This document shows, one piece after another, positions 17,639 through 61,400 of a DNA stretch of 64,000 bases. Within the stretch, counting starts at the first letter, position 1, and the number at the start of each line of letters is the position of its first letter. A program made the translations under genes and the position numbers. The notes beneath the pieces are model-generated. The model saw only the letters and a list, made by a program, of their open reading frames with translations. It was not told the origin of the DNA and made no database searches. Source of the stretch: a virus (taxonomy: Duplodnaviria > Heunggongvirae > Uroviricota > Caudoviricetes); IMG/VR virus record IMGVR_UViG_3300043024_000042; one strand, given 5' to 3'.

Positions 17639-17769
17639 TAAAAGGGCGACGCTTCGCCCTCTGTCCTTAATAAACCATTATTAAAACAAATCATACTATG
17701 AAGAAACATGCGTAATTAACGTGAGACAAATATACGAAAGTCTTTCTTATCTCCAAAATTTAGGGAATA

Positions 17770-28212: not shown

Positions 28213-28286
28213 ATCAATAATTTTTAGGGGTTAAACATTGTCGTGCAGTCAGATTTTATTCTGGCCGCACATTAGGATGCAATCTA

Positions 28287-29425: not shown

Positions 29426-29496
29426 GTCTATAATGTTTTAGGGGTTAATAATCGCTGAGCGGACACTTATTAGAGCAATCCGCCCAAAATTGTAGT

Positions 29497-33830: not shown

Positions 33831-33899
33831 ATCATTTAATTTTAGGGGTTAATAGTGCAGCCCTGCCGGTTGTCACACCATGCAGGGCCGAAGAAAGAT

Positions 33900-36380: not shown

Positions 36381-36971
36381 AATCTTTTGTATTTAAATGT
36401 TAATAATAAATTGACTTCTATTACAAATTTACCACTTTATTTTAATACCTCAATCATATACGCAAAGAATTTGGGGAGTATTTTAGTTAAAATCCGAAAA
36501 AAGTTATAAAACGCTGAAAATAAGGTAGTTATAATAGTCGATATGCTACACTTGTAATATTTAAAAATAGCCGGTACCCCCCCCAATTATAGATATAAAA
36601 AATTTGACCCTTGACCTCCAAAATATTTTTCCCATCTTAAATTTTCCCCAATCCAATTTTTTCCATTTCCCCAAATATCCATTTCCCCAGCTCTAAATTC
36701 CCGCTCAAAGATTTTTTCTCAAATCTTGACACGTTTACATTCCTTAACACTATTTTAACATTACGAAGGTATGTTTAAATATTGCTAATATGTTTGCGAT
36801 ATTGTATGACATTGCTATCTTTGGCACATCGTAACATGGTTGCGTAACCATTTGGGTTATATGGAAATTACGCAGATTACGTATTTATACCCTATCCCCC
36901 TTATCTCCCGCGTTTGTGGATTTGTATATGGGCCAGAATAGAAGTATTAATTTTATATAGCCCGAAAAATT

Positions 36972-38498
36972 TTGACAAAATTGTTTTTCGACATGGCATA
37001 CAAGGCAAAGACGAACTTCAACTACACTCCCAAGTGCGCGGAGATGACAGAACTGGCGGTAGGCAACCTGCGGGATGTCTACTCGCGTGACGTATTCCGC
37101 ATGGTGGAAGGGGTAAGGGGTTACTCCGAGCAGGCCAATGCCCTGTGCAAGTTTATCAAGGGTGCTTTCCGTGCGGCTGCTTTCGGGGTCTACAAGGGTC
37201 AGATACATTTCTTCACGGGTAAGATCTACGAACCGGTGCCTGCCTTTGTGATGAGGGACATCGTGAGCCAGTTCCTTGACGGGCTAGGTATCTCCCCGCG
37301 TCTGTTGTTGAAGTACGGGGACAACAAGTTCTTCTGGGAGGCGCAGCGCGCCTGCTACTACAATCCCTTGCAGCCCTCGTTCCATCTCATGTCGTTCAGG
37401 AACTGTGTGGTGGATATGTCCACCGTGACGCAGTACCCGCATGACCCGAGATACCACTGCGTGTACCTGCATGACTATGACTTTGACATGACCGCGGAGT
37501 GTCCCACGTGGAAGGCTTTCCTAAAGAGGATGCTTCCCGACAAGGCATCCCGCCAGATATTGCAGATGTACCTCTCGCTGGCCCTCGTCGACAGAAGTTC
37601 CATGACGATGAAGGTGGAGAGCTGCCTCTGCTGCTACGGCTCCGGCTCCAACGGCAAGTCCGTTGTGTTCGAGACCGTGTGCGGGCTGTTCGGGCGGGAG
37701 AACATAGGCATGTCGGGTGTCGAGGCCATCATCTGCGGACGGGGCGACGAGCAGCTCCGGGCCGCCGCCGCCATCGACGGGATGAGATTGCTGTACTGCT
37801 CCGAGGTGAACAAGAAACTGGCGGTGGGGGACTCATCCTCGCTTTTCAAGAAATTCGTGTCGGGCGAGCCGATACAGGGCAGACTGATAGGGCAGGACGA
37901 GTATACCATATACAACATACCCTATCTCGTGATGAACCTGAACGACAGGATAGACACCGGGGACAACTCGTATGCGATAACCAGGCGGTTCATAGAGCTT
38001 GACTTCCCGGTGAGGATCACGGAGGAAGAGAAGGACATGGGACTGGCTGGGAAGATAGCGAAGGAATACACGGGGGTGATGGCATGGCTCGTCCGCGGGA
38101 TGAGGAATTTCAAGGCCAACGGGTACCGGTTCCCGCAGTCGCAGGCTACCGAGATGGCCAAGTTCAAGAACCTGGCATACTCCGACCCGTTCTACGCATG
38201 GACCACCCTCTCGCTCATGCGCGACAAGCCGCTGAAACGGAACGAGGAAGCGCAGAAATACGCGGTGGCCGACCTCTTCGCCAGCTACGTCGCCTTCTGC
38301 GAGCTGAACGGGCTTGACTACGTGAACCTGCTGATGTTCGGACGCAAGATGGTCAAGGCGGGGTTCACCTCGCGGAGGGAGAACAAGACCACCAACTATA
38401 TCATCTACGGTGACTTCGACATACAGAGGGTGCCGGAGCTGGCCGACAAGGAGGTTTACGACATACCCGCCGTGGAGGAAGAGGAAGAGTTGTACTAA
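36972..38498 (+). CDS. phage/plasmid primase-helicase (P4/D5-type SF3 NTPase)
   Basis: Walker A YGSGSNGKSV, a Walker B-like LLYCSEVNK and an acidic C-terminal tail. 508 aa at about 60% GC. Confidence 0.7.
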   Translation: MTKLFFDMAYKAKTNFNYTPKCAEMTELAVGNLRDVYSRDVFRMVEGVRGYSEQANALCKFIKGAFRAAAFGVYKGQIHFFTGKIYEPVPAFVMRDIVSQFLDGLGISPRLLLKYGDNKFFWEAQRACYYNPLQPSFHLMSFRNCVVDMSTVTQYPHDPRYHCVYLHDYDFDMTAECPTWKAFLKRMLPDKASRQILQMYLSLALVDRSSMTMKVESCLCCYGSGSNGKSVVFETVCGLFGRENIGMSGVEAIICGRGDEQLRAAAAIDGMRLLYCSEVNKKLAVGDSSSLFKKFVSGEPIQGRLIGQDEYTIYNIPYLVMNLNDRIDTGDNSYAITRRFIELDFPVRITEEEKDMGLAGKIAKEYTGVMAWLVRGMRNFKANGYRFPQSQATEMAKFKNLAYSDPFYAWTTLSLMRDKPLKRNEEAQKYAVADLFASYVAFCELNGLDYVNLLMFGRKMVKAGFTSRRENKTTNYIIYGDFDIQRVPELADKEVYDIPAVEEEEELY

Positions 38499-38514
38499 TT
38501 AAAGACATAATGAT

Positions 38515-38874
38515 ATGGCACTGAAAGAATGGAAGAATGAGAGAAGCTTCACCTCCTGCGAGGATTGCGGGAGCTGGGGCGAGAACGGATGCAGGATGGG
38601 CCTGCAACCCGTGCGCGCGGGGTTCAACGCTGCGGGCGATTTCTATGACTGCAAGAACTTCCACCTCGCCCCCAAGAAGGAGGTGAAGGTTAGAGAAGAG
38701 ACACCCGCACCCGCTGTCGCACCTGCCGCCATAAAGAAGGAGGCGGAAGTATCTGCACCCGTACCCGCGGAGAGCGAGCCGGAGGCTGCTACTGTGGAAG
38801 GACCTGCTGCGGAGAAAGAGACCCCCAAGAAGGAGGTGAAGGCTAAGGCAAAGAAAACATCTAAAAAGAAATAG
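38515..38874 (+). CDS. zinc-ribbon protein with a Lys/Ala/Pro-rich histone-H1-like tail
   Basis: CEDCGSWGENGC..C and a C-terminal KKEVKAKAKKTSKKK. Confidence 0.45.
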   Translation: MALKEWKNERSFTSCEDCGSWGENGCRMGLQPVRAGFNAAGDFYDCKNFHLAPKKEVKVREETPAPAVAPAAIKKEAEVSAPVPAESEPEAATVEGPAAEKETPKKEVKAKAKKTSKKK

Positions 38875-38875
38875 G

Positions 38876-39403
38876 ATGGACGAGAAAGGAATTGTATGGG
38901 AGAAGAGAGTGGGGAACCTCATTCTCCGCAATATAGAGGGCCAGACATTCAACGTCACTGTGACGCGGCCTGACGGAAGCAAGGAGGATAAGGGTGAGGC
39001 AACCTTGCATTACATCACCCTTACGAATGTCGATAACAGCTTCTCCGTGGCATGGAGGGAGGATACCCTCGTATACCAGCTGCTGGAGAAATGCCACGAG
39101 CAGCCTGACGAGAATACCGACCTCATCACGGAGATCATCGCCCTCACCACGTTCTGCGTGGGCAGTTCCGCAGACGTGTGCCGCCCCTTCAAGAAAAAGG
39201 ACGGAGGGGATGTAGTGGACGGGCTGCGCCTGTCCGTGCAGCGGGCCGTATCCGACTACTTCAAGAGAGTGGGCGAGTACGCTGCCGAGGACGGGGATGA
39301 GCCGGAGGAAAAGATAATCGAGGATATGAAGGCCTATACGGAAGCCCAGTCCGCGCTTGACGGGATGAAGGCAGACGAGGCCGAAGGGAATGACCAGCGA
39401 TAG
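38876..39403 (+). CDS. hypothetical acidic protein, 175 aa
   Basis: ATGG overlap with the previous gene. Confidence 0.4.
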   Translation: MDEKGIVWEKRVGNLILRNIEGQTFNVTVTRPDGSKEDKGEATLHYITLTNVDNSFSVAWREDTLVYQLLEKCHEQPDENTDLITEIIALTTFCVGSSADVCRPFKKKDGGDVVDGLRLSVQRAVSDYFKRVGEYAAEDGDEPEEKIIEDMKAYTEAQSALDGMKADEAEGNDQR

Positions 39404-39479
39404 CAGCATGTTTTTTTCATAGTATGATGTCCCACAGCGGTGGGTAGTGTGTTTTTCATAGTAGATTGATTTAAGTTAA

Positions 39480-39995
39480 ACATTCCCCTCCTTGTCTGTG
39501 AAGATAGGGAGGTTTTGATAGGCAGTTCACATTATTACTATATACTATCTGCGCAAGTCGGATGCCGAAGCCCGGTGAGTGCATAGCTGTTACTTAAGTC
39601 TTATTTTTGTTTTGTCTAATTTTACCGCCGGACCCCGTGAGGGCAATGGCGGTTTTTGACAGAGAATTACGTACACCACATATTATTTCTATTGGATATT
39701 TCATATTGTTTCCCGTCCCGTCCGTGAGGATAGGGCGGTTTTGGAGAAGTCAAGGATATTTGGTCCTTTTAGGACCCCTGAGCCTTAACTGAGTGGTACT
39801 CATTATCTGATTAAAGTTAGTTGTTTATTTTCCCTTCCGGTCCGCGAGGATAGGGAGGCTTTTTGACGATCACTTTTTCCATATATATTATCAACCCTCT
39901 TACTACGGGAGGTTTTTTCTTTTCATAATTTGTAATTTGGTTAAATGTTAGTGTTAGGTGCGTCTGTCCGCGAGGATGGGCGCATTTTGCATAAA
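39480..39995 (+). repeat. tandem array of 5-6 conserved 40-nt hairpin-U elements (consensus CCGTCCGYGAGGATAGGGMGGTTTTTGA) spaced about 90-130 nt apart
   Basis: Copies at about 39484-39525, 39624-39662, 39707-39745, 39830-39870, 39899-39925 (partial) and 39957-39995. Each has a short GC stem, a GAGGATAGGG loop/3' arm, then a T run. Confidence 0.5.
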
Positions 39996-40211
39996 AGAAG
40001 GGCACACCCAAAACAGGATGTGCCCCGCTCCTTGCCATGGAGACCTCAGTCGCTGTCCGACTCATGGTCAACGGTGCGCCTCGGCTTATTGCAGAGATTA
40101 TGGATGGCACGGTACCATTCCACGTCCGCAGAGAGCCTGCGCACCCGCTCGCGGTGCCGGAGTTGGATATCCTTCCACTCCTTCCCGCTCATTACCACTA
40201 AACCAAATACC

Positions 40212-40754
40212 CTAATCATCGTTTGAAGAATTATTGTCTTGCTCTTTTTCTTGTTTGATGTAAAGGCTGCAATCGCGGCAGGTCAGGGGAAGGTAAAAAT
40301 GCACAAGATGTTCCTCGTCCTTCACCTCGTCCTTCTTCATCTGGAGAAGGTCCGCGTACTTCATCATCACCTCCGCTCTCTCCTTGGAACCCGGCTTCAT
40401 GGACTTGGCCGTTTTCAGCAGTTCGCGCGCCACATCGTCCTTCGTCAGCAGTCCATCCGTGGTCTGCATATCATCCTGCTCTTCCTGCTCCTGCCTGTTG
40501 CGCTTGGTGATTTTCTTATACTGCTTCTCCAGTTCGTTGACGAGATAGCAGTACGCATTGTCCGAGAGGATGCGCCTGAGCTGCCCCATGTCGTAATCCT
40601 CCGTGCTCTGCGAGTTCTTGTTGATAACCGAGTAGTAGGCATCCCTTTCCGACATGCCCACGGCCACGAGGGTGGCCATGACATACACGTCCCACTCCAC
40701 CCCGTTCTTCTTGGCCAGCTTTTGCAATTTGTCCGATACTCCTTTCATAATCAT
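40212..40754 (-). CDS. hypothetical protein, 180 aa; small-terminase candidate by position only
   Basis: Last gene of the minus-strand morphogenesis operon, next to the tandem repeat elements. Has a Cys-rich C-terminus. Confidence 0.25.
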   Translation of the reverse strand: MIMKGVSDKLQKLAKKNGVEWDVYVMATLVAVGMSERDAYYSVINKNSQSTEDYDMGQLRRILSDNAYCYLVNELEKQYKKITKRNRQEQEEQDDMQTTDGLLTKDDVARELLKTAKSMKPGSKERAEVMMKYADLLQMKKDEVKDEEHLVHFYLPLTCRDCSLYIKQEKEQDNNSSNDD

Positions 40755-41560
40755 TCCTCCAATTCATAAGCCGGTACACGATAACACTTGCAGTGCGAGT
40801 GGGGATAGCCGTTGTCCGCATCCTCCATAGGATGGAACCCGGCCTCCATGTCGCACAGCTCGCAGGGATAGTTACTGCCTCTTAACTGGTAGTAGCCTAT
40901 CGCGCCCTTCTCCTTCATATCCCATATTCCCAACTGCCACCATGCAAGGTCCAGCGACCCCACCGTGATGCGGTCTATCTGTGTCGCGCTCACATTGCTA
41001 CGACCAGTGCCGAACGTAGCACCGCGCGAGCGCAGGCGGTCCGCCCTCGGGAACGGCATGGCAAACGCTTTGGTGATGAGCGCGTCGGTCCATGGCGACT
41101 TCATGTTGGCGAGATAGTCATTGGCCGTGCGCAGGTAGTTATAGCCAGCGAGAAGCCCCGCGGCTATAAAAGCCTCCATCTCTCCCTTGTAGTTCGAGAG
41201 ATAGTTTCCTATCTGCGCGTACACGTCCTGACCGTTACCGAGGGAGGCGAGATAGGTAAGGATGCTGTCGCGTGTTTCCTCATCATTTGTCAGATTGCTT
41301 ACCGCATCCTCCAGGAGCGCGTAAATCTCCTCCAGGAGCTGCGCAATAAGCGCGTCCACCTCCCTTTGCAACTCATCGTTGTTAGAGAAGGCGAAGTCGG
41401 ATGGAGCGGTGCGGTACTTGTACCCGAGCTGGATAATCTTCACGGCATAGGCATAGAGCAGGGAATGGATACCCGAGAGCAACCCATTCTCCAGCTTTAT
41501 GCGCAGCGCGAGGAAATCCTTCGCGTCCTGCAAATCGTCCTGTGTGTATCCGGCACTCAT
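40751..41560 (-). CDS. putative head morphogenesis/minor capsid protein (Mu F / SPP1 gp7-like), Cys/His-rich C-terminus
   Basis: Position directly downstream of the portal gene. C-terminal CELCD..HSHCKC cluster. Confidence 0.35.
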   Translation of the reverse strand: MSAGYTQDDLQDAKDFLALRIKLENGLLSGIHSLLYAYAVKIIQLGYKYRTAPSDFAFSNNDELQREVDALIAQLLEEIYALLEDAVSNLTNDEETRDSILTYLASLGNGQDVYAQIGNYLSNYKGEMEAFIAAGLLAGYNYLRTANDYLANMKSPWTDALITKAFAMPFPRADRLRSRGATFGTGRSNVSATQIDRITVGSLDLAWWQLGIWDMKEKGAIGYYQLRGSNYPCELCDMEAGFHPMEDADNGYPHSHCKCYRVPAYELEE

Positions 41561-43318
41561 TTATTGTCGCTTTTTATCAAAATCATCCCAGTTATTCTCT
41601 CCTAAGAAATTGCCGTTCTTGTCCCACGTCTTTCCGCTCTTGTTGGGTCTGCCAGGCCTGCGTCCGCGACCGCCCGTATTGACATTACCCTGGTATCCCT
41701 GCGTCTTTCTCTGCGGGGTGTCATTGGCCTTTGTTGGGTCGATATCGTTCTGTAACTGGGCCATAGTGGTCTGCACCTGACCGGTGGTGTTCACATCCCC
41801 GTTGAGGATCTGCGCGCCCATTGTCTGCTGGAGGTTGGCCAGCACATCCTGCTGCTGCTCTTCCTCGATCTCCGACTTGATGCGCTCAATCTCGTCATTG
41901 GTGGTGTATACACCCGCGCGCATGGATGCCGTGCGCTTCGACATGAACTTGTTCTGCACACCGAGCGCGAGGTTCTGCATGAGTTCGGCCACATTCTGCG
42001 GAACATAAGGCTCGATCCACACATTCATCTTCAACGCTGCGAAGTCAAGGGTATGTTCCGTCTCCACTCCGTATCCATATCTGAATATCTCAACAACCCC
42101 GTCGATGAACTGCGCGAAGTCGTTGCTGTCTACCGTAGCCTGCTCGATGGCCACATGGAAGAGCAGACGGATGGATGATGAGGGTGTATCACCTGATTTC
42201 AACTCCACGTTCTTCACGCACTTGCTCTGCTGGTAGATGGCATCCTCGAGCATATCCAGCTCGGACTTGTAGGACGAGGATGCGTCCTGACGCTGCAAGA
42301 AGCCCGCCTCGCCGTCCTCGGGGATAGTCACCACCTTTACCGCGTTGTTCATGTCTCCCACAACATCGACACCCTCCCCTTTGAGATACATGATAGGTGT
42401 GCCGAAGGCATGGTTGCTCTGCGCGAGCCGTGAGAAGGCAATCTCGTAATTGTCGATGCTGTCCTGCGACTGCGACCAGCACGCACCCATATCGTTTCGG
42501 TGGTACACTACCGGGATGCGGGGGAACATGTGCTTCTTTCTCTCCACAATCTCATATCCGCTCTGTCCGTAGATGCTCTTGATGGAGTTGAGTAAGCGGT
42601 CTATCCTTGTCGCCTCTCCGCGTTTTAGACGGTAGTAATACTCATTATCCCACACCTCTATCCACGAGGTCACTGTGATGCCATCCTTATCCACATCTGT
42701 ATACTCGCGCGCGAGGCAGTTCAGGTCTCCCGTCTCCGGGTCAAAGTGGGGATAAATCTTGTCACCCTTCTCGTAGGAGAAAACGCGCCAGCCGAACTTG
42801 CCGTTCTTAAGATAGCCGACAAAGGCGGTATCTCCGGTCGCCTTGACAGCTCGAGCAGCCTCGTACCATGCCACCTCCATGCCTTTGTTGAGCCACCCGA
42901 GTCGGAAGGTTTGGAACATCTGCTCCTGATTCTCATTCTCTTTCGTGGATAGCAGCTCGAACTGAACATCATTCGCGCAGAGGTGTGTGAGTTGCTTGGT
43001 GAGGATGTCGTACTGGAAGCCGAAGGCATAGCGCGGCACTTCCTCCACGAACCACTTCCCACTCTCCGGGTCCTGCCGCCAAATGTCGGGATAGTACTGC
43101 TTGTTCCAAATCATGTGGCCGTTCTTGTCAAGCTCGCGCAGGAAGTCGGCCTGCGTCACGATGTCGAACAGCGGCTGGTCGCCCTGATAGGTGTTCAGGC
43201 TCTTTTCCCGGTCCCTCGTGAAGCCACCGCTATGATACCCTTCCGGACGGATGCGCACGAAGGGCGGCTTCAACAGCAGGTCTTGTATGCCCTGCTTAGT
43301 CAAACTTAAATTCTCCAT
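41561..43318 (-). CDS. putative portal protein
   Basis: 585 aa, immediately downstream of the terminase large subunit. Gly/Arg-rich basic C-terminal tail. Confidence 0.5.
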   Translation of the reverse strand: MENLSLTKQGIQDLLLKPPFVRIRPEGYHSGGFTRDREKSLNTYQGDQPLFDIVTQADFLRELDKNGHMIWNKQYYPDIWRQDPESGKWFVEEVPRYAFGFQYDILTKQLTHLCANDVQFELLSTKENENQEQMFQTFRLGWLNKGMEVAWYEAARAVKATGDTAFVGYLKNGKFGWRVFSYEKGDKIYPHFDPETGDLNCLAREYTDVDKDGITVTSWIEVWDNEYYYRLKRGEATRIDRLLNSIKSIYGQSGYEIVERKKHMFPRIPVVYHRNDMGACWSQSQDSIDNYEIAFSRLAQSNHAFGTPIMYLKGEGVDVVGDMNNAVKVVTIPEDGEAGFLQRQDASSSYKSELDMLEDAIYQQSKCVKNVELKSGDTPSSSIRLLFHVAIEQATVDSNDFAQFIDGVVEIFRYGYGVETEHTLDFAALKMNVWIEPYVPQNVAELMQNLALGVQNKFMSKRTASMRAGVYTTNDEIERIKSEIEEEQQQDVLANLQQTMGAQILNGDVNTTGQVQTTMAQLQNDIDPTKANDTPQRKTQGYQGNVNTGGRGRRPGRPNKSGKTWDKNGNFLGENNWDDFDKKRQ

Positions 43319-46011
43319 ATTCCTTTTGGTTTAGTGATTTTCTTTGCTTTAACGTCGAATATCATACGCATGATAAGAGCCTCGAAGAAGTCCGGCGAGT
43401 GTCCCACGAACTTTTTCATCTTATCCTTGCCGATGATGTAGAATCCCTTATCCACCTTGGACTCATCCTTGCGGACGCATTTTCGCTCCTTCATCAGGAC
43501 TTGTCTTAGCGGCATCTTCTCAAAACCCTTGCCCGAGAATTTCAGGTCGAGCAGCCTTGGGTTGATGGATATCTCCCTCTCGTAAATCTTCTTGGTAAAG
43601 AGATACGCGCACTGCGATTTTAGGTTGCCGTACAAGTTCTTCTCTTTCTCGTCGACAGCCTCTTGGTTGTTGAAGGGCACGGCTTTCTGAAACCATCCTT
43701 TAAGCGTCTGCCCCACACCCTGCAAGTCGTATGTGAAATGCTCGTCAGTGACACCCCACTCGGTGAGCTGCGCGCGTACCGCATTAACCGTATTCTTCGG
43801 GTCGAGTTTGAACACAGCGATGTCGGTTATATGCCAGCCGGTCCACAGCCACATGACGAGTGAGTCGCCTCCGTCGAAGGCTACGTCACACGACACCCGT
43901 TTTATCCCGTCGCCTATCATCTGCGCTTGTTCATACATCGCCTCGAGGTCGGTCATTTTAATCATATCGTCTCCAATGGCCTTGTAGTTCCAGTTACCCT
44001 CGAGGTCTCGCGCGCGCTGTTCCTCTCCCTGCTGGGCAAGGTTGGCCACATAGGACGGGTCGGAGGTAATGAGTTTTATATTCTCTTCCACGTTACCCTT
44101 GATGAACGTAGCGGACTTGATGAACATCTTCAACTTGTCAAAGCCGAGTTCACCATACGCAGGCTTCCAAAGTCTGTCGATGGTGTCCTTGCATTGCAGG
44201 TAAACCTCTTCCCGTGTGTTGCCCCAATAAATGCCGGATGGCGAATCTCCGTCCATGAAGCAATAGCGCACCACACCGCTCCGCTCTGGGATAGGCAGTC
44301 CGTCCTCTCCGATCCACCATGCGATGAAGCCTCTGACCCATGAGTCGGGGTCTGGGTTGCAGGTCCCGTATATTCTGTTACGGATGCCGTAAGCATTTCG
44401 GGAGTCCGTGATGATGTACTTGAACTTGTTATAGGGCATGTGTGTAATCTCGTCAATGCCGATATAGGGGTATTGCTTGCCCTGGAATCGCTTTTTGAAA
44501 TCCTCGTAGTCACCTTCATAGAACGTAAAGCGCAGGGAACCTCCTTTATAGAAGTTCCACGTCATATCATTCAGTGACTTGTTGTATGTGCCGAACTGCG
44601 AGTAAAGCAGGGGAGCATCTTTTGTCAGACTCTCCAAGTCACCCTTCTCGTTACGGAGGATGATAGCGTTGAAACGGGGATTGTAGATGTCTTTAAGCGT
44701 TTCCATGAGTAAGGAGAAGGAGTTATGCGTCACAATGAAATCATCAGTAATGTAAAGTGCATTAGGGTTGCTGACCGCTATACAACGACACTTCTCGTAA
44801 CCGACAAATTCATATCCAACAATTCTACGGCAAGGTATTGAAACATCACCGTTATACTCCTTGCATAGTTCCCTTTTCCGGCTCAGCCTGAACAGACGTT
44901 CTTTATTAGCAATTTTAATACATAGAGTATAGGCATCTTGACAGCGAATATATTCACCGTCCTTTTTATATCCAGCCTCATGCTTTATGATTGTTACAGA
45001 ACTTCCAATAGATTCAAGCATATATCGCATGTCATAAGCGAGCGTTTCGCTTACTGTCGTATATGTCAATCTTCCTTTAGATGAGCAACAACCATCCGTA
45101 TCCATCATACCTTGAATAAGAGCAATTCTTTCATCCAATGGAGCTGTTTTATAGTATGATGGGATAAATTTTGAATTGGAAACACATCCAATCAGTCCCA
45201 TTTCATATAGCTGATTATAAAGATCAGCACATTTAATGCGATAATCTTTTGCTTCACTTGCCTGCTTCTTATAAGACGAGTCCATAGATATCCCTGCTGA
45301 TACAAATTGGTTTACTATTTCTTCGTCAGCGGACGTGAATATGATTACACCATGTTCAGTAGCAATTTCAGAAACGCATCCATCACCTATTATAGCCCCA
45401 ATGACGTAAGGATTGATGGTTGGCGCCCATCCATTTACAGCGCGTGTAAACTTGATTGGCTCAGAAAGAGGAATGAGTAGATGTGAGTCATACTGCGACT
45501 TTTTTGCGTTTCCCTGATTGTCAAGAAAATCTTTAATCATTGAAAACGTCCAAGTTCGCCAATCCATTTCTTGGCCACCTCCATTATTCTTTCTCTTTTT
45601 CGTAATCAAATTGGTTCTTTTGATATTCCACAAGTGGTCCTCTGTGCAGTCTGTGAACGTGCCATCGGAGAATTTGAGCCGATAAATCGGCTTAACACCC
45701 CATTCGGTAATACAGATTACATTTTGAATACTACCCATTGTGTCGTTTATCATATCTCCGACACGCAAATCACCAATAGGCTTAAACCCGAAAGGTGTGC
45801 AGACCTTTGAGTAATAAGGTTGTGCTTTCGAGCAGCCCCGGGATCCGCCTACGATTACGATATCTGCGGACGACGACAAGAAAATTTCCTGACAGCCCCT
45901 TTGAGCGTAGTAAGCCGAAGGGGTTGCCTTGTTCATGTCCGCTTGGCGCATCTTATCCATGCACTCATAGGAAATCACTTTGTTTCCGTCTTTGTCTCTA
46001 ATGTCTATCAT
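43306..46011 (-). CDS. terL: terminase large subunit interrupted by an intein with a LAGLIDADG homing endonuclease
   Basis: Walker-A-like VIVGGSRG before the insert. After the insert: Walker B IGIDEITH and nuclease Asp motifs (CDVAFDGGDSLVMWLW). Insert carries GAIIGDGCV and IQGMMDTDGC (2x LAGLIDADG) and ends ..FIVTHN|S. Confidence 0.8.
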   Translation of the reverse strand: MIDIRDKDGNKVISYECMDKMRQADMNKATPSAYYAQRGCQEIFLSSSADIVIVGGSRGCSKAQPYYSKVCTPFGFKPIGDLRVGDMINDTMGSIQNVICITEWGVKPIYRLKFSDGTFTDCTEDHLWNIKRTNLITKKRKNNGGGQEMDWRTWTFSMIKDFLDNQGNAKKSQYDSHLLIPLSEPIKFTRAVNGWAPTINPYVIGAIIGDGCVSEIATEHGVIIFTSADEEIVNQFVSAGISMDSSYKKQASEAKDYRIKCADLYNQLYEMGLIGCVSNSKFIPSYYKTAPLDERIALIQGMMDTDGCCSSKGRLTYTTVSETLAYDMRYMLESIGSSVTIIKHEAGYKKDGEYIRCQDAYTLCIKIANKERLFRLSRKRELCKEYNGDVSIPCRRIVGYEFVGYEKCRCIAVSNPNALYITDDFIVTHNSFSLLMETLKDIYNPRFNAIILRNEKGDLESLTKDAPLLYSQFGTYNKSLNDMTWNFYKGGSLRFTFYEGDYEDFKKRFQGKQYPYIGIDEITHMPYNKFKYIITDSRNAYGIRNRIYGTCNPDPDSWVRGFIAWWIGEDGLPIPERSGVVRYCFMDGDSPSGIYWGNTREEVYLQCKDTIDRLWKPAYGELGFDKLKMFIKSATFIKGNVEENIKLITSDPSYVANLAQQGEEQRARDLEGNWNYKAIGDDMIKMTDLEAMYEQAQMIGDGIKRVSCDVAFDGGDSLVMWLWTGWHITDIAVFKLDPKNTVNAVRAQLTEWGVTDEHFTYDLQGVGQTLKGWFQKAVPFNNQEAVDEKEKNLYGNLKSQCAYLFTKKIYEREISINPRLLDLKFSGKGFEKMPLRQVLMKERKCVRKDESKVDKGFYIIGKDKMKKFVGHSPDFFEALIMRMIFDVKAKKITKPKGIWRI
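44722..45834 (-). mobile_element. intein, about 360-370 aa, with a LAGLIDADG homing-endonuclease domain
   Basis: N-terminal Cys (aa 60 or 71 of TerL), two LAGLIDADG motifs about 95 aa apart, C-terminal His-Asn followed by Ser. Exact N-junction uncertain. Confidence 0.55.
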
Positions 46012-46209
46012 AACAAACAGAGGCCCGCCTGCAAGCCATATACGACCTGCACGCGAGCCTCTTGGACTTCTTGATGATTAATGTACCCTGCAAATATAGC
46101 AATGTCTTAGTATTTAGCGAATAAAAATCAAATTATATCGAAATTTTTTCCGAAAATATTTGCCAATGTGCCATGACATTTATATGTTTGCCCTCGTAAT
46201 AATAACCTT

Positions 46210-46526: not shown

Positions 46527-46599
46527 CGCGGAGTGGAGCAAATGGTAGCTCGTCGGTCTCATAAACCGAAGGTTATAGGTCCGAGTCCTATCCCCGCAA
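46527..46599 (+). tRNA. tRNA-Met (anticodon CAU), initiator-like with a C1-A72 mismatch; no encoded CCA
   Basis: Manual cloverleaf: U8; D arm GAGC/GCUC; anticodon stem UCGGU/ACCGA with loop CUCAUAA; 5-nt variable loop; T arm AUAGG-UCCGAGU-CCUAU. Acceptor stem has 5 of 7 pairs, with C1-A72 unpaired as in bacterial tRNA-fMet. Confidence 0.55.
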
Positions 46600-46695
46600 C
46601 TATATGGTGAAATTTTGAGACATCGAGAGGTCCGACAAGGTGAAACCCACCTTTGCCGGACTTCTCCTTTTTTGTTTAATCTAAACCCCTTTTCA

Positions 46696-52493: not shown

Positions 52494-55400
52494 ATGGAAG
52501 GAACAAGTTTGGGTAATCTTTATTTCGAGCTGGGGATAAAGGATACCGCCACGCAGAACATTGACGGGGTTATCAAATCCCTGCAAGAGAAGCTGAAAGT
52601 CCTGGAGGTAGGAGGCTTGAAGTTCAAGGAAGGCTCTGTGAATGGACTAAAGAAGATGATTGAAGGAGGTCTGTACGGCCTCGAAGTTGCCGTTTCGCAG
52701 GACAGCATCGTATCAAGCATCAATAAGGCCATCAAGACAGGAGCGTTTTCATCCATCAACCTTAGAGCGTTCATCGCCGAGGATGAGTTCAATAAAATCA
52801 GCTCGCAAATCGAGGCTTTGAAAACAAAGGCTCAGGGTGTCGTTATCTCCGTCAAGAATGTGGGTGGTGGTGACGTAAACCTCAATCCTATCATCAACAG
52901 CGGAAAGCCGATAGAGTTGAAGGGTACGGCAAGTATTGTCGCTAACCTTGACGTAGAGGCCACCCGCGCGTCTCTGCAAGCGCAGCTCGCTAAAATAACC
53001 GGGTTGAAGGTTGATGTACAAGTCAATCCTATCACCCCTGCTGGTACTACTCCTTCCGCACCGGCTCGTCAGCGCACGCGCACCGCCGACAGTAATCAAC
53101 TCAATTTAAACTTCTCGGAGAAGGTAGTCACTTCATCTAAGAAGGCCGAACAAGCTTTCAGGCAGGAAGGTTCTGCCATAGAAATGCTTATCAGTGAGTA
53201 CGAACGATTGGAGGCGAGAAGAAAAGACCTCGACTCCTTATCGGAGGGGACCATCGAACCAAAGATGGATGAGACGGCTGCGAGGATTGAAGCCATCCGC
53301 AAGAAGATAAACGAGAATGTCAACGCTATCGGTCATGCGAACCAGCAAACCAAGAAGAGTCTCAAACCAAGCGTAAATATATCCGACCTAAAGAAGCAAA
53401 TTGAGCTTGACCGGGTTGAACTTGGAAAGGCTGAAATGGAGGCTGGCAAACTTGATAGACAGAATACTGACATCGAGCGGCAATTTAAGGTGATTGGGGA
53501 TCGAATAGCACAAATCCGCAAGATACTATATCCCGATGAAACGCTAAATTGGAACGCTAAATCAGCTGGCAATAGAGTTGCAAGTCTTGAAAAGAGTATA
53601 ATAACAGAAACTACGCTTTTGGATAAGGTGACAAAGGATATAGCCGAGTCACAGTCCAAACTTGACGCTCTGAAACAGAAAGGCTCGGGTAGCCGGGCAG
53701 AAGAAGCCAAACTCGAAGCTCTAATCAAGAAATCAGAGCGATACAAACAACAGCTCGAAAGGTACAAACTGTCGCTCGAAGAAGCGAAGCGCAAGAAAGC
53801 GGAAGCAGACAGCGCACTCGCGGACTTCGAGTACACCCGTTATGCTCCTACATCAGCAACCCCCTCTACTCCTACGCAAACCGCTCAGGTCTCCACCACC
53901 GTAGCGCAAAAGGAGAAGGAGGCAGCGAATGTTCAGAAAGAGGCTGCTCAGGCGAAAAAGGAAGCCGCGCAAAAGGAGAAGGAGGCGACATCTGAAAGCA
54001 CGAAGTCCGCTAAGGCAAAGTCTGATGCAGAGAAGGCGAACGAAGCAGCCATTAAATCCCGCATTGCCACCATCAAGAAGTATGATTCCACAATGGATAC
54101 CATGCGTCTGTCTATCGCACGCAAGGGTAAGAAACTCAATGACGAGTTGCGAGACTTTGCACGCGAGCGCTCGCGTATCTATCAGGAAACACTCAAACTC
54201 AATGGCGGGCGCGAGGCGATCAACGATTACTTGGTCGGCAGAAAGGAATCCATCGGGCTTGTTACATTGAAATCAAAATACGCTTACGATGCGAAAACCG
54301 CGGATGTGAGCGAGAAGTCCGCTGCAAAGGAGGAAGCGGCAGCAAGCAGACTTTCCGCCAAACTTATCGAGATAAAGGGCCGGATGTATGACCGTATGGC
54401 CAAGCTGGACGAAGCGGCAGCGGCAAAGACAGTAGCCATTCAGACCAGCCTTTTCATGCGTGCCGAGCGTATGCAGTGGCAGCAGTCAAACAAGTCGAGC
54501 GATATATCCGCTCGTGGCGGAAAGGTGTCTGTCTACGAGAGGAATGTGGCCCTGCTGGAAGAATTTCAAAAGAAATTGCTTGCCATCGAGTCTCTTGAAG
54601 ATGCGATGGCCGCAAAGAACACGTTTGCGCAGCTCTCGTCCAACATCCAGTCTACCACGAGCAATGCGGATAAGTTGAATCAGTCGTATATCCGCAACAA
54701 GGAGGCCATCGAAAAACTCGCTGTTGCTGCCCAATCCAGTTATGCGATAGCCGATGCAAGTGGCAAAACCGGTCTGAGCGCAGGCATAACGGCGGCATAC
54801 GAAGAGTTGAAGAAATTCAATGACAAGCTTGCAGACCCCTCCAAGTGGACCTCGATAGATACTCTCGGAAAGGAGTTTAACGATATTAAGCTGAAGATTG
54901 TCGCTGCGGAAGCCGAGTACGCCAAATTCAACAAGGGATTTATCTCCACCGACAAGGCTGTCGAGAAGGTGGATTCCGCACTTGTCAAACTTGCTAACAA
55001 GAAACGCGAGCTGGATAATTATAAAGGTACTCGTGGCGCGGAGTGGCAGAACGCGCTCAATGCCCTTAATGCTTATATCGCCAAACTTCAATCGTTGAGA
55101 TCGAGCGGAGATATTAACAGCAAGAGTATTGTCGGAAAAGCTACCGGTGTAGAATTACAGCAGGCCATCCTGAGAGTTAACCAATATCTTGATGCTCAGA
55201 AGCGCGCGGATACTGCCACGAGAGCATCTGCAAGTTCTCACGGAGTAGCGGAGAAGGCCATTAGAAAACATGCGGATGCAAATGCGAAGCTTAGCGCGAG
55301 CCTTAGCAAATCAGGTGGATTGTTACACCTTAACATCAATCTCATGCAGCAACTCGGCTCTATGATTGGTATGTACTTCTCTATATACACCTTGCAGCGT

Positions 55401-58400
55401 TTTGTTTCCGGCATCGCCCAAATCTATGGTGAGTTTGAGAAAACGAAGATTGCGTTAGGCTCCATCCTCAATGATACGGCAAGAGCAAATGAACTTTTCA
55501 ACGAACTAAAATCACTGGCGGTCCAGTCTCCCTATCAGTTTAAGGATTTGACCGGATTCGTTAAGCAGTTGTCGGCTTTCTCGTTCCCCGTGGATGAACT
55601 TTACGACACCACAAAGCGCCTCGCAGATATTTCTGCGGGTCTCGGTGTGGATATGGGCCGAGTCATTTTGGCCGTAGGCCAGGTCCGCAGCGCCGCGTAC
55701 CTCAGGGGTCAGGAATTGAGGCAATTTACAGAAGCTGGCATCCCAATGTTGGACGAACTTGCCAAAAAACTGACCGAGGTTAAAGGCCGTGTAGTAGAGA
55801 CCGGAGAAGTGTTTGATATGATTTCCAAGCGTCAGGTTCCCTACGAAATGGTGAAGGAAGTTGTTGACGACCTTACCAACGAGGGCGGTAAGTTCTACAA
55901 GATGCAGGAAGTATTGGCTGATTCTCTTGCCGGTAAAATCTCGAACCTTACCGATGCCTATAATATCATGCAGAATGAGATTGGCGAGATGGGCGCAGGC
56001 GGTTTCATGGGCAAGGGAGTGGATGCGTTGAAGCAAGTCATGCAGAATTGGAAAATGCTTGGCAATATCCTCTCGTCCGTCCTTGTCGGATATACTGCGA
56101 TTAAGATTGCTCAAATGTCCTACCACAAGAGTGCTGCCAGCGGTCTTGCCGAAGAGATAACCGCGAGAAATAAGATAATCCGTCTTGGAAATCTCGAGAA
56201 ACTTAATGTTTTAGGCCTTAAAGGAATTCATGGTGAGCGAGTTGTATTGCAACGCCAGGCTGTCAATGAAAAACTGAAAGAACTGATAAGTCAGGATAAG
56301 CTAACGGTCGGGGACCTTACGAGACTGCGCATCCAAAAGTTAATTACCAAAGAGCAGTACGAGCAAAACTTAGTTCTTCTTGGAGTGGGCAAGAGTTTAG
56401 CCAATCAAACCGCTGCTCTTTCCACAATGAAGTTGCGGTGGAGATTGATTGGCGCAAGCGTTGTGAATGGGTTTAAGAGCATGGTTAGCGGATTCGTGTC
56501 TTTATTCTCGTCTCCTGCGTTGTGGATTGGCGCAGGAATAACGCTTATTACCTCGTTATTGGAAAAATATGAGGCAATACAGCAAAAGAAAGAGCAACTT
56601 GTCAGTGACGCACGCGACATGGGTTCCGAAGCCATCAAGGATACTCGCAATGTGTTGGCGAGATCATTGACCGAAAAGGGCGGTGGAATTGAGTATGATG
56701 ATATTGTGAAGATTGACGAGAAGCAACTTAGCACCGAGATGAAAGGCAAAATCCTCAAAGCAGTTCAAGACCTCGAGGAAACCATCAAGAAACACTCCCC
56801 GATTGCAGCACAGCAGATATTCGATATCGAATCCATCGACAATGTAATCGAGCGTCTTGAAAAGGCGAAGGGTGTTGTAGAGGAAATCCAAAACCAAGCA
56901 AGATACTCGGAATATTATGGTGCAATCATAGCCGACCATTATAAGTTGGATGATAAGTTTAAGTCTGCTGCCGACTCGCGTACGGCCTTCCAAAAGGCCG
57001 CATTGAGTGTATCCGAGCAGGAAGTTGACAGATTCGTTAAGGCACTGAATGAGAAATTTGGCTCCTACGACAAGCGTGCGAAAGACGTCAGCGAAATTTG
57101 GAGTAATGGCGGCTCCATCCAGGACATCATTAAATATATCGCGGAAAACAGACAGCGTATCCCAAGCAGCCTGATGAGCGGTAATATGTTTTATGCAAGC
57201 AACATCTATGCGAGCATGGAGGCTATGCAGAAAGCGGCTCAAAAAGAATGGGGAAAGCTTTCTGACACCGCAATCCTGGCTGCGAACCGCGAGGGTCTTA
57301 CTGACGATGAGCGCAGGATGTGGCTGGAGAATTTCAAGAAGGCAGCGTTCACTGCGTTCCCGAATGTCGCACGTGACCCCGAGTTCGAGCGGCAACTTAC
57401 TTCTGTGTTCCAACAGAAGGCATTTGGTGTGTCCGATTCTTACATCAGCGATATTGCGACCGAGTATCTTAGTACTCTCACAACCACCGAGCAGCAAGTT
57501 CTTGATGTTCATAGCGAGCAGTTCAAGAAGCAATTCGCGTCATGGCTGGCAAAGACCAAGGGTATTGTTGTAACATCTGACGGGAAGGCTGTATCCGCCC
57601 CGTATAACTACGGAGAGCAGGCTGCATCCATTCAGTCCTTCTTTGATGGTAATATCCAAGCGATGTTTGACGCTCAGGAAGAAAAGGTTAAAGAGGTGCA
57701 GGATGAGATAAAGCAGGATTCCGCTCAATCACAGCCCGATTCAATCTGGGGGAAGAGCGGTTCTTTCAAGTCGAGCGTTGATGCCATCCTCGATAAAATC
57801 AACGATGGTACGACCGCTGCCGTTGAGGGTAAGACGGAGACAAACGCGCAGGCTGTTGCTGATGAAGTCAAGCGAGAATCTGAAAGTGCCGGTAGGAAGA
57901 ACCCGGATGAGATGCGCAAGGCTATTGCGAAGAGGATTGTAAGCCTTATCAACTCAGGTGATGAATCACTCCGCGTCATGCTTCGCAAATCCGGTATGTA
58001 TGATGATATTATGAGCCTTGGCAAGTCTGATATCGAGAAATTTATGGAAAACCAATGGAGGGAATATGCCGATAACGAGGATTTCTTCTCTTGGATACCT
58101 TTCTCGCAGCGCACCAACAAGCAGGTTGGTAGTGATGCAAAGGAGAAGATTCACACGGAGATAGGTGACTTCATCGAGAATATGTGGAATGATTATGCCG
58201 ATTGGGAGGAATTTTCCGCTTGGATACCTTTTGAGCAGCGTATTGATCCTGACAAGAGACAACCTAAGACCGCTAAAGAGCATATCCAAACTGAAATCGA
58301 GAATTATCTCGACAGCTCTTGGAAGTCCTATGCCAATAATATGGCTATCGGCGCTTGGCTGAAACCGTCTGATAGCGATGCGGCAAATAAGACATCTAAG

Positions 58401-61400
58401 GCCAAGCAGCGTGTAAAGTCTGATATAGAGACCTTCATTGAGAATATGTGGGCGGAATACGAGGATACTGAATACTTCAATAGCTTCCTCCCGTTTAGTC
58501 AGCGATTCTCGAACAATAGCCAGGTACAGAAGTTCAAGGAGAAGATTGCCGACAATGTGTCTAATTTTGTAGAGAATGTATGGGATACGTATGCCAAGGA
58601 TGCCACTGCTGGTGCATGGCTTTCTTACTATACCCCCAAGCCCGAGAAATCTCCCTACGAGACGATGCGTGACAAGGCCATCTCTGAATCCGTTAAGGTG
58701 TACAGGAACGGCAACAAGGATATTCTTGATATCATAAAGGGTGCTGATAATGGTATATACGAGGAAGTACGCAGTCAGGTCGAGGAAAAGGTTACTACCT
58801 ATGCGGAAAATGTTTGGGACGCTTACGCTACCACTCTCGCAAGCGGATGGGAGAGATATGCGGAGCAGGAAGCATCGAAGTCTAAGGCTCCAAAATCCAC
58901 CACCGTAGACAAGGTGAAGGATGAGATTGTTATGCAGGCAGACGAGTTTGTGGAGAATGTTTGGCAGTCGTACACGCAGCAAGCCTTTCAGTCCACTTTT
59001 GAAGTCGAGCCTAAGAAGGAGAAGCAAGTTACGGACCAAGTTGCGGAAACCGCGACAGAAAGTGTTGTTAATATCACCAATGCGGTGGTCGACACACTCG
59101 CCGGTGCAGAGCAGATTGCGGAGGATGTGGCTACCGATGGTCTGAATGAATATCTCCGTGCGATAGACGAAAAGCGTTCAAAGGATGCCTTGAAGGGTTG
59201 GAGGCGCGAGTTCATCGGCAACCTTGATCTGCGCAGCAATGACGATTTGTACGATGTTCTGAAAGCCGAAAATAGCGATATGGAATCAGTTATCAGTGGC
59301 TTGCAAAAGACATACGACAAAGGTAAGGCCACTATGGAGGCAATCAAGCCGGTCCTTGTAAAACTTAATGTGGACGTAGAAGCAAATTGGGGCGCGTACT
59401 CGGATGGCAACGGGCACTTTGACGTGGATAAGTTCATGCAGGATAACATACCCTTGCCAAGTCAGACGGACGATATGCGTGAGGCTATTACGGTTTACGC
59501 TGGTGGTAAGAAAAATGTCGAGCAAGCGCAGAGGGTTGCAAACGAAAACGGCATCACTCTTACAGACAAGGGCAAGTCCGGCTCTACTGCCGACAAGCAG
59601 CTCCAGGCATGGAAGAAACAATTCGATGCCTTGAAGAAAATCTACAACGATTACAAGTCGTGGCAGAAAGACCTTGGCAGACAGAGGGCGACAGAGTTGT
59701 TGCAGCAGAGCGGCATGACGAGCGAGGATATCGGTAATATCGCCACGTTTGACCCGGAGAAGATGCAGCAATACTTTGCCAAGATGAAGGAGCGCATCTT
59801 GAAGAACAAGATGAGTTCAGAGGAAAGAAAGTCCTTCTCCAACTCCCTTAACGAGTACGAGATTCAGTTGAAGGTAGAAGTGGAGCGCAACAGTTTGCAG
59901 GATGCTTTGAGCACCATCCGTATGGAACTTGAAAAATCCAGCAAGGAGTGGGGTATATACAAGACATGGTTCAATGCTACCGGTGACAAGAAGTTAGCCC
60001 AACAGATTGCTTTCGGTGGCTTTGTAGGCAACGACAGTTATGCCGATGCCTTGCGCGAGAAACTGAAATCCGAGTATGACAAGATTCAGAACCCGGAAAT
60101 AGCCTACGACCAACTTCTCACCACCAACGAAAAGACATTGAAGGAGAAGTTCGGTGAGTACACCACCCTGCTTGAAATCATCAAGAAGATTCAGGATGAG
60201 GATAATAAGTTGAAGGAGGAAAATGCCAACACCTTGCTTGAAATCATCAAGAATAACAAGAACTTCGAGCAGCAGCTTGCCGAAATCGAGCGTAATCGCG
60301 ACAAGGATTTGGGTCTGATTCAGAATGATGCGAACCTTACCCCGGGGGTAAAGAAGCAGTACGAGGAAGGTACAAACAAGAAGTATGACGAGCAGAGATC
60401 TAAGGTGCTCTTCGAGCAGTTCAAGGCTACTGAGAACTGGGCGGAGATATTCGACGATCTCGATAGAGTTTCGACATCCACCCTTGATTCCATGTATAAT
60501 AAGATAAAGGCGTTTGCAACTACCCAGGGTCTAACGGTGCAGGAAACCAAGGAACTTGTGTCTGCGATGTCTAAACTCCGTACAGAGGCCACCGACCGCA
60601 ATCCGTTCAAGGGATTTGCCAACGGCCTGCGCGATATCCGTGAATCCAAGGAGAATTTGCAGAGCCTGGATACCATTCTTCGCCAAATGAAGGCTGTGGG
60701 TACTGATAAATGGGTTCTTTCGTCCAATGTCGGAAGATTGAAGGCTGGTAGGACTTATACAAAGAAGGATATAGAACAAGAACAGCAGAACCAGCAGAAT
60801 GGCAATGCAGCAGGCAATGCAGAACTTGATGAAGCGACCACCAAGTTGATTAATAAGTTCCAAGCCCTCGCGGATGTATCCAATCAGCTTGCATCTCTCT
60901 TTGATTCGATGGGATTCGGCAGTGGATTCGGTGATGTGATGAGCGCGGCGGGTTCCGCTTTCAGTGCGGCAGGATCAACGGCAAGTAGTGCAACGGCTAT
61001 ATTCGGCCAAGGCGCGGGCATCTATGGCGCGGCTGCTGGCGCGGCTATCTCCATTGCAAGCACGCTGTTTAGCCTGCACGACAAGGCGCTCGACAAGGCC
61101 ATCAATGCCAGCAAGCAGAGAGTGGAAGAACTTCAATCCGCATACGACAAGCTGGAGGATTCCATCGGCCGTGCGTTTGGCGGTGGCAGCAGCTCTTTCG
61201 AGCGGGCCATCCAGTCCTACACGCAACTGCTCAACCAAACGTCCGCAATGAACGTGGAAATCTCCGACAGCTATAAGCGCGTGTACACGGCTATGACTGA
61301 CGGAGGCAAATCCTATATGGCCGAGCTTGTCAAGAATATCGCGACAAAGAATGGCTGGGAGGTCACTATCAGTCAGGAAGCCCTTAAAGCGTTGAAGTCC

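Follow-up and report, generated by a model that had tools for sequence, protein, structure and literature searches.

A chained hairpin array in the tail of a replication operon of a gut Bacteroidales phage has features of FopS-like small RNAs

What is a run of related hairpins doing where two phage operons meet? On the 64,000-nt viral sequence IMGVR_UViG_3300043024_000042 (Caudoviricetes; hereafter the window, meaning the whole stretch that was analysed), a replication operon on the plus strand and a TerL-portal operon on the minus strand converge on the interval 39404-40045. A reading made from the letters of this sequence alone (the sequence-only reading) had proposed several tandem copies of a hairpin-U element at 39480-39995, placed where two operons converge, and both proposals held: the plus-strand open reading frame (ORF) ends at 39403, the minus-strand operon ends at 40046 with its own terminator, and the plus strand in between carries an array of seven head-to-tail hairpin/U-run units, four ending in a common core hairpin, one in a diverged core hairpin and two in plain hairpins. 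Judging from sequence comparison and predicted folding, we see an even chance that these units are FopS-like small RNA (sRNA) modules directed against start codons, which would lie in the 3' untranslated region (3'UTR) of the operon and would also terminate and insulate transcription.

The four core copies, in hairpins h1, h3, h4 and h5, have GTCC-GYGA-GGAT-A-GGG in common with at most two mismatches. With up to three mismatches allowed, the 16-mer GTCCGYGAGGATAGGG matches the 64-kb window four times, always inside the array and on the plus strand, compared with 0.65 matches expected from shuffles (0 of 100 shuffles reached four), and a covariance model built from other viral contigs only returned the same four plus-strand sites (E values of 4e-12 to 2e-6), which follow one another at core-to-core distances of 226 nt (a gap that spans h2), 120 nt and 126 nt. 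The sequence-only reading had likened each unit to a terminator with a conserved loop; a hairpin followed by a T run is found at each unit (free energies (dG) of the array hairpins of -14 to -17 kcal/mol, with four to six U after each), but the conserved stretch GTGAGGATAGGG is a GNRA tetraloop together with the entire 3' arm of a 10-11-bp stem, not a loop.

All seven units read on the plus strand. Unit A (39406-39456), whose plain hairpin h0 (39431-39444, CCCAC-AGCG-GUGGG) stands just upstream of where the sequence-only reading began, has the seed-like sequence UGUUUUUUUCAUAGUAUGAU (39409-39428) before the hairpin and a U run after it. Unit B (39449-39517), the FopS/GibS-like unit, comprises an R1 seed, GUGUUUUUCAUAGUA (39449-39463), an unstructured AU-rich stretch, h1 (39487-39512, CCTCCTTGTCT GTGA AGATAGGGAGG, 11 bp, dG -16.6, model E value 2.6e-9) and UUUU. 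In unit C (39518-39658), a 107-nt spacer leads to h2 (39625-39652), a diverged core reading CCC-GUGA-GGG with internal loops (dG -15.4), and UUUUU. Unit D (39659-39743) ends in h3 (39713-39738), an exact core copy (GUCCGUGAGGAUAGGG, model E value 4.3e-12), and UUUU; unit E (39744-39865) ends in h4 (39833-39858), also an exact core, with a GCGA loop (dG -14.1, model E value 8.5e-12), and UUUUU, and its spacer holds a small internal hairpin and the FopS-like stretch CUCAUUAUCUGAUUAAAGUUAG. Unit F (39866-39918) is made up of the short spacer CUUUUUCCAUAUA, the plain hairpin hF (39896-39912), which lies outside the core family, and UUUUUUCUUUU, and unit G (39913-39990) of a 45-nt unstructured 5' part (UUUUCAUAAUUUGUAAUUUGGUUAAAUG...), the core copy h5 (39959-39984, dG -17.0, model E value 2.2e-6) and UUUU.

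The conserved element is an RNA structure read on the plus strand. On that strand unit B folds at -19.7 kcal/mol (z score -3.5) and unit G at -20.6 kcal/mol (z score -3.1), both with an essentially open 5' part and the hairpin terminal at the 3' end, whereas the minus strand of the same stretches folds at only -9.9 and -7.3 kcal/mol, respectively, because G.U pairs turn into A-C mismatches. A blastn search with 38000-42000 gave no match among 50,697 phage records, a protein-guided locus search with the 175-amino-acid (aa) ORF that precedes the array returned nothing from viral contigs or metagenomes, and a set of 5.8 billion proteins contained only three related to this ORF. The comparison therefore covers three diverged lineages, the only ones found to retain the synteny (the window with L091, L088 with its duplicates, and L090); homologues of the 175-aa ORF hold the same position in relatives, and the array is present in all three lineages. 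Across them the apical pairs undergo compensatory changes (GUCC/GGAU, GUCU/AGAU, GUUC/GAAU, GCCC/GGGU); every copy has a GNRA loop and retains the closing G.U. The window and L090 keep h2, h3, h4, hF and h5 in the same order and spacing, with an h2-type hairpin also kept in L090 and a hairpin at the position equivalent to hF, and between these two lineages the spacer of unit D is significantly similar (z score 5.3, 0 of 500 shuffles) and that of unit E marginally so (z score 2.4).

The same was seen on a wider scale in 41 unrelated contexts, comprising all exact core matches in viral contigs after dereplication and with no structural filter applied. There the three basal pairs adjoining the core covary freely (CG, GC, UA, AU), 79% of cells overall being paired as against 69% in shuffles, and the basal covariation score was 0.331 compared with 0.164 +/- 0.015 in shuffles (0 of 500 shuffles equalled it), falling to 0.07-0.20 in slid registers; the A that follows GGAT has, as a rule, no pairing partner (29 of 41 contexts). 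The array hairpin is thus conserved, with compensatory changes, in the three lineages; conservation of the core in relatives had been set as a test by the sequence-only reading. The equivalent junction of LoVEphage was considered as a further relative and rejected, as it has no array and its apparent gap is unannotated coding sequence. Sigma-70-type promoter matches over the U runs (TTGACA-17-CATATT and similar) were also rejected, because promoters of Bacteroidota, to which the host belongs, follow another consensus, the genes are without Shine-Dalgarno sequences and neither L088 nor L090 conserves the hexamers.

The case for sRNAs comes from the likeness of unit B to the FopS and GibS RNAs of Bacteroides. 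FopS RNAs are about 65-70 nt long, with a 5' seed (R1/R1') that is single-stranded and a hairpin that acts as terminator; they are multicopy, with one member, FopS-14 of B. thetaiotaomicron, derived from a 3'UTR; and they are bound by RbpB and pair with the start-codon region of susC, a block of initiation that has been shown experimentally (Ruttiger et al. 2025, PMC11697453). A FopS sequence has already been remarked in one Caudovirales phage (PMC11697453). Unit B shares with FopS and GibS the R1 seed (GUGUUUUUCAU[A/G]GUA) at its 5' end, a weakly structured to unstructured 5' part with an AU-rich stretch, a GNRA-capped terminator hairpin (11 bp, GUGA), a U run (UUUU) and a length of about 69 nt. 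Its stretch 39449-39463 is identical to positions 1-15 of the GibS consensus and is followed by ..GAUUUAAG.UUAA.., the GUGA-capped hairpin and U's, and cmscan aligned the unit with GibS (30.3 bits) and FopS (28.0 bits), both alignments starting at 39449.

The R1 seed occurs three times in the window: in unit B, as a near copy in unit A (39409-39424), and at 17705-17690 on the minus strand. The last of these belongs to a FopS-like paralogue at about 17.7 kb (17634-17757, minus strand), which comprises a sigma-ABfr-type promoter (17757-17727), the seed UUCUUCAUAGUAUGAU, an AU-rich stretch, the hairpin GGGCGA-AGCG-UCGCCC and UUUU, scores 21.0 bits with FopS and 19.6 bits with GibS (cmscan, at 17709), and has a seed matching that of unit A, with which it shares a 16-mer. 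This paralogue is driven by a promoter; therefore, the phage encodes such an RNA as a gene. Nearby, on the same strand, a second promoter-driven unit was seen, in which P1 (17870-17840) would drive a roughly 70-nt RNA with GUGGGACG-AGAAA-CGUCCCAC and U's at its end. A bridge to the bacterial side is provided by Parabacteroides segnis (L139), where a 76-nt element matching FopS (47.8 bits, E value 5e-4) ends in CCGUCUU-GUCCGCGAGGAUAGGG-CGG, that is, in the core hairpin of the array. More generally, a U-rich CAU(A/G) lies near the hairpin in 17 of 55 distinct contexts, compared with 7.6 +/- 2.4 in shuffles, with a peak 36-50 nt upstream of the core and no enrichment of the reverse motif, which argues that about one-third of all modules are FopS-like. 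The array also departs from FopS and GibS: its units are chained in the 3' tail of an operon, whereas FopS RNAs are dispersed genes with a sigma-ABfr promoter; the 5' parts have diverged in most units; and the hairpin is a specific variant, GUCC-GNRA-GGAU-A-GGG, that is also used outside FopS-like RNAs.

How might such a chain yield sRNAs? The replication operon has a canonical Bacteroides-type promoter (TTTG-N-TAnnTTTG) outside the array at 36793-36823 on the plus strand, and the terminator scan of the window listed no terminator-like site on that strand between this promoter and 39403, so that transcripts of the operon should enter the array. The units have no promoters of their own, and the proposal therefore assumes partial termination and processing of the 3' tail. 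Host RNA polymerase would stop only partly at each 4-6-U terminator and would leave nested 3' ends, which the hairpins would shield, and cuts in the AU-rich spacers would free RNAs of about 50-140 nt. The U-rich 'CAUA' 5' parts of these RNAs, being antisense to start-codon regions, would block translation initiation. Units A and B and the 17.7-kb paralogue would act through the GibS/FopS R1 seed on host susC-like mRNAs, and unit G on the TTAACC...AUG leaders of the phage itself; a secondary effect of the five to seven terminators would be to guard the convergent late operon from antisense read-through. In this scheme we infer expression, partial termination, processing, targets and host effect.

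Target predictions were most pronounced for unit G, whose 5' part is antisense to the TTAACC...AUG leaders in almost continuous predicted pairing. With the start region of the gene at 26267 the predicted duplex reaches -31.3 kcal/mol (shuffles, -21.6 +/- 2.2) and with 24 leader-type start regions a mean of -19.2 kcal/mol (shuffles, -12.8 +/- 1.4), while duplexes with other start regions were the same as in shuffles; for unit B a weaker trend was seen (z score about -2). The leaders themselves form about 19 gene-start cassettes between 21890 and 34430 on the minus strand (for example 28222-28234, 29436-29448 and 33840-33852), each with a GC-rich hairpin, gcGATTA-TTAACCCCTAAAA, 9-10 nt and the ATG of a small minus-strand gene. 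The hairpin loop in these cassettes spans 12-14 nt, often with GA(C/T)AA, and no T run follows; the pattern had 23 hits in the window against 3 expected, and the cassette may function as a leader, promoter or processing signal specific to the phage. A scan of viral contigs with a 17-mer from these early leaders gave only single scattered matches.

The resemblance to these cassettes raises the question of whether the array is read on the other strand, as degenerate 'hairpin - TTAACC leader - ATG' cassettes that carry mini-ORFs or are recombination cassettes left behind by gene loss. Units B, E and G do read hairpin - TTTAAC.. - 8-20 nt - ATG AAA on the minus strand, much like the roughly 19 leader cassettes at 21.9-34.4 kb, and seven-codon 'MKR' mini-ORFs can be read after h5 in both the window and L090. 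We nevertheless consider this improbable because the minus-strand hairpins are far weaker (-7 to -10 versus -20 kcal/mol, with G.U becoming A-C), the U runs fit the plus strand only, a strong minus-strand terminator (40026-39999) precedes the array when it is read this way, the opposite-strand ORFs at CAT are mostly 1-30 codons long across phages, and the 'MKR' mini-ORF is absent in L088.

The hairpin is far from confined to this phage. Its exact 16-mer core was found at 87 viral-contig loci, most with complementary flanks and a T run. In phage clusters of transfer RNA (tRNA) genes (L046, 3500-3940; L040, about 850-880) it stands 3-6 nt before the tRNA genes with no T run, which argues that the conserved sequence serves something beyond termination. 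A third phage locus of this kind, with the same placement and again no T run, was seen at L035 5270-5600; the tRNA-spacer hairpins are preceded by AU-rich stretches, one with GUGAUUUUUCAUAGC, and the phage hairpin often adjoins cleavage sites of ribonuclease P (RNase P). These tRNA-adjacent modules look like tRNA-spacer RNAs freed by tRNA processing. Small units that begin at a canonical TAccTTTG promoter and finish with the hairpin were seen in Prevotella (L100) and metagenomic contigs (L270).

Arrays recur as well. When metagenomes were scanned for pairs of cores at a distance of 107-137 nt, 75 loci were retrieved, 28 of them with at least two family hairpins, and several array families could be distinguished. 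In the L219/L236 family, an array with five hairpins, T runs and seeds of the R1 type (GUGUUUUUCAUGG) stands at a convergent junction; the L236 array lies at 1570-2100 on the reverse strand, with kin in L219, L234, L260, L264, L269 and L282. The elements that alternate with these hairpins (GGUUCGAnUCC) are read, from their sequence, as putative tRNA-like acceptor-stem/T-arm minihelices; neither ARAGORN nor Rfam called a tRNA in the L236-type array itself. In bacterial genome contigs most core matches were due to chance or other contexts, one recurring context being read, without verification, as tgt coding sequence. About a dozen matches there were genuine hairpins, almost all of them from Bacteroidales (Prevotella, Paraprevotella, Parabacteroides, Bacteroides, Muribaculaceae and Paludibacteraceae) with a few from Clostridia bins. 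GUCCGYGAGGAUAGGG was also seen inside the class A RNase P RNA of Planctomycetes and Saccharibacteria (L148, 6434-6847; L113, 3594-4100; Rfam-confirmed), where a stable GNRA hairpin has probably arisen independently, and an Opitutales metagenome-assembled genome (L172, 375-6068) has six scattered GGCCUGUCCGUGAGGACAGGG-like hairpins over 6 kb, a different repeat family with a similar apex. As judged by these contexts, the hairpin is a reusable 3'-end module of FopS-like RNAs, mRNAs and tRNA spacers in Bacteroidales and their phages.

Several results weigh against the units being FopS-like sRNAs. No canonical Bacteroides promoter was found ahead of the array units, the sole TAnnTTTG box (39602-39609) lying in the spacer of unit C; the sigma-ABfr promoter (TTTG ... 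TAnnTTTG) present at the 17.7-kb paralogue is thus missing from the array units, although this feature is not absolute for FopS because FopS-14 is 3'UTR-derived. Unit B is not a formal member of either family because its scores are far below the Rfam gathering cut-offs (28 versus 56 for FopS, 30 versus 115 for GibS), and nothing in the whole window reached an Rfam gathering score, nor did the related arrays of L088 and L090 or the arrays found elsewhere. Unit B, unit A and the 17.7-kb RNA were among the four best window hits of a seed-only nhmmer profile, at non-significant E values of 7-35. In a global test, conservation of spacers F and G was not significant. Duplex prediction for units A and C-F against all start regions of the window gave no pairing beyond shuffles, and unit-G-type complementarity was not reproduced between L088 units and the single leader available there; since no L088 unit matches its leader, we take the possible regulation of phage genes by unit G to be a lead that applies to the window lineage only. 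Finally, the best conserved blocks across the three lineages are the hairpins, and in 20 of 34 distinct viral contexts the hairpin follows the end of a same-strand ORF by no more than 60 nt (gap mostly 22-58 nt), which makes it a gene-end hairpin.

The last two observations also favour plain tandem intrinsic terminators or 3'-end stabilisers, which would do no more than stop read-through from the replication operon into the antisense of the portal and TerL genes, with the FopS-like sequences as relics of the duplicated module devoid of trans function, an account that we take seriously as a less probable alternative. Each unit has a stable GC-rich hairpin followed by a U tract, all pointing the same way as the upstream operon at a convergent junction, and polymerase release is predicted; of about a dozen strong sites returned by a terminator scan of the 64 kb, five fall inside these 600 nt (a stricter T-run filter listed four array sites and missed h3). 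The U tracts are short, so that several weak terminators in series would make sense. However, termination needs no particular apex, and here an apex with a G.U and a mismatched A is kept across unrelated phages while the basal stems are free to change. Plain terminators would also not call for the hairpin before tRNAs with no U run, the three R1 seed occurrences (one of them in a promoter-driven paralogue), the conserved spacer of unit D or the 90-130-nt spacers, which are superfluous for termination, and they leave the tRNA-like elements that punctuate other arrays unexplained. The sequence-only reading had offered three interpretations: its multi-stop terminators are compatible with all data, its array for packaging found no support, and its tandem family of small RNAs has gained independent support from the seed and architecture of unit B, the P. 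segnis bridge, the 17.7-kb paralogue and the other phage arrays.

The gene neighbourhood bears on two further interpretations. Portal relatives, promoter type and scarcity of Shine-Dalgarno sequences identify the window as a LoVEphage-like phage of Bacteroidales: the nearest cultured relatives of the portal are those of Bacteroides phage LoVEphage, B. intestinalis phage BI-TP1 and Phocaeicola phage PV4-TP1 (about 42% identity), Bacteroides-type promoters (TTTG...TAnnTTTG) precede several operons, and most genes lack a Shine-Dalgarno sequence. On the plus strand, the replication operon encodes a D5-type primase or primase-helicase (36972-38498), a 119-aa ORF and, last, the 175-aa ORF (38876-39403), which has no assigned function and whose stop lies 3 nt before the array. 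A DNA replication element, with the repeats as iterons or single-strand initiation hairpins for the adjacent primase-helicase, could be suggested by direct repeats and AT-rich spacers lying directly downstream of the replication module, and d(GNRA)-type loops can be stable in DNA too. We judge it very improbable because the compensatory changes keep the pairing and alter the sequence that a protein binding double-stranded DNA (dsDNA) would see, because the U runs and the strand asymmetry indicate RNA, and because the hairpin also recurs in Bacteroidales chromosomes and, at gene ends and in tRNA spacers, in many unrelated phages; identical repeats specific to the replicon and set beside its initiator, as expected of iterons, were not found, the array adjoining a primase but having a core that is widespread elsewhere.

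On the minus strand, the TerL-portal operon encodes TerL with a LAGLIDADG insertion (43306-46011), the portal (41561-43318), a 269-aa head-morphogenesis-like protein, a 180-aa product (40212-40754) and, last, a product of about 57 aa (40046-40219), and it is closed by an intrinsic terminator at 39999-40026 on the minus strand (GGGGCACA...UGUGCCCU, dG -20.9, then a U run). The sequence-only reading had suggested that the 40212-40754 product might be a small terminase and the array its pac site. Repeat arrays can serve as pac sites, and the proximity to the packaging and head cluster and the repeat character of the array are what speaks for this one, but we hold it to be extremely improbable: the 180-aa product follows the portal and the head-morphogenesis-like gene, about 2.5 kb from TerL and not beside it, and shows no terminase similarity, with no match to Pfam or PHROGs (E <= 0.001) and none among PDB sequences; conservation of the array is of the RNA type, the fold being kept while the sequence varies, and not of the dsDNA type; and the motif occurs in unrelated contexts. 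Elsewhere in the window, TerL is 901 aa long and a LAGLIDADG homing-endonuclease domain (residues about 294-354) splits its terminase segments, a form of the same length being present in relative L092, which suggests an intein or an inserted endonuclease. A single 3268-aa ORF (52494-62300, plus strand) presumably encodes a giant tail or tape-measure-type protein, and at the start of the plus-strand structural block, with a canonical promoter at 46159, stand a tRNA-Met gene (46527-46600, plus strand) and a strong 42-nt hairpin (46625-46666, plus strand, dG -24) with a T run.

How does the array compare with systems already described? Tandem Rho-independent terminators at convergent operon junctions are known, and the array resembles them in its GC-rich hairpins and U tracts, co-oriented with the upstream operon and facing an operon with its own terminator, but differs in having five to seven copies 60-130 nt apart, a widely shared apex and seed-like 5' sequences. 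In enterobacteria, sRNAs such as CpxQ, DapZ and 3'ETS-leuZ derive from 3'UTRs or tRNA spacers; as in the scheme proposed here, such an RNA shares the terminator of an mRNA and is cut from a longer transcript, and related phages place the module between tRNAs, although the window has a chain of modules and not one, and its processing is predicted. Prophage sRNAs that imitate or oppose the sRNA circuits of the host, such as DicF and the AgvB/AsxR of enterohaemorrhagic Escherichia coli (EHEC) prophages, likewise provide a mobile element with a short regulator that enters the post-transcriptional network of the host, but the window belongs to phages of another phylum, would use a copy of a host seed and not an anti-sRNA, and has an array layout. 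FopS and GibS, intrinsic terminators and one phage copy of FopS are thus known. A chained FopS-like array in the tail of a phage operon, GUCC-GNRA-GGAU-A-GGG as a shared 3' module of Bacteroidales phages (tRNA spacers included) and additional metagenomic arrays of this hairpin were not found in Rfam or in the literature searched. The GUCCY-hairpin motif, a short, REP-like (repetitive extragenic palindrome) hairpin of Bacteroidetes linked to URI endonucleases (Weinberg et al. 2010, PMC2864571), was considered and rejected as the same element: in its alignment, GUC-[GCUCCAAGCU UGA CUUGGAGC]-CUA (PMC2864571), GUC and CY flank the hairpin and the loop differs, whereas GUCC lies inside the stem in the window.

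If the units are terminators only, the array is a tidy, ordinary insulator. Of the post-transcriptional regulators that govern polysaccharide utilisation in gut Bacteroides, FopS and GibS are understood best, and the phylum Bacteroidota is not known to have Hfq or ProQ. The presence of the hairpin at gene ends, beside tRNAs and in independent arrays makes it a bait for the missing sRNA-handling proteins of the phylum. A rather speculative extension, which we put forward tentatively, is that the hairpin is a recognition handle for a Bacteroidota RNA-binding protein or RNase and marks a modular class of sRNAs that phages chain to copy the FopS seed; on that view, phages would seize translational control of SusC and polysaccharide utilisation loci (PULs), and with it nutrient uptake and possibly receptor display, and would time their own early genes. 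If the units are indeed FopS-like sRNA modules, gut phages may reprogram the glycan uptake of their hosts, or the timing of their own genes, by means of host-sRNA mimics.

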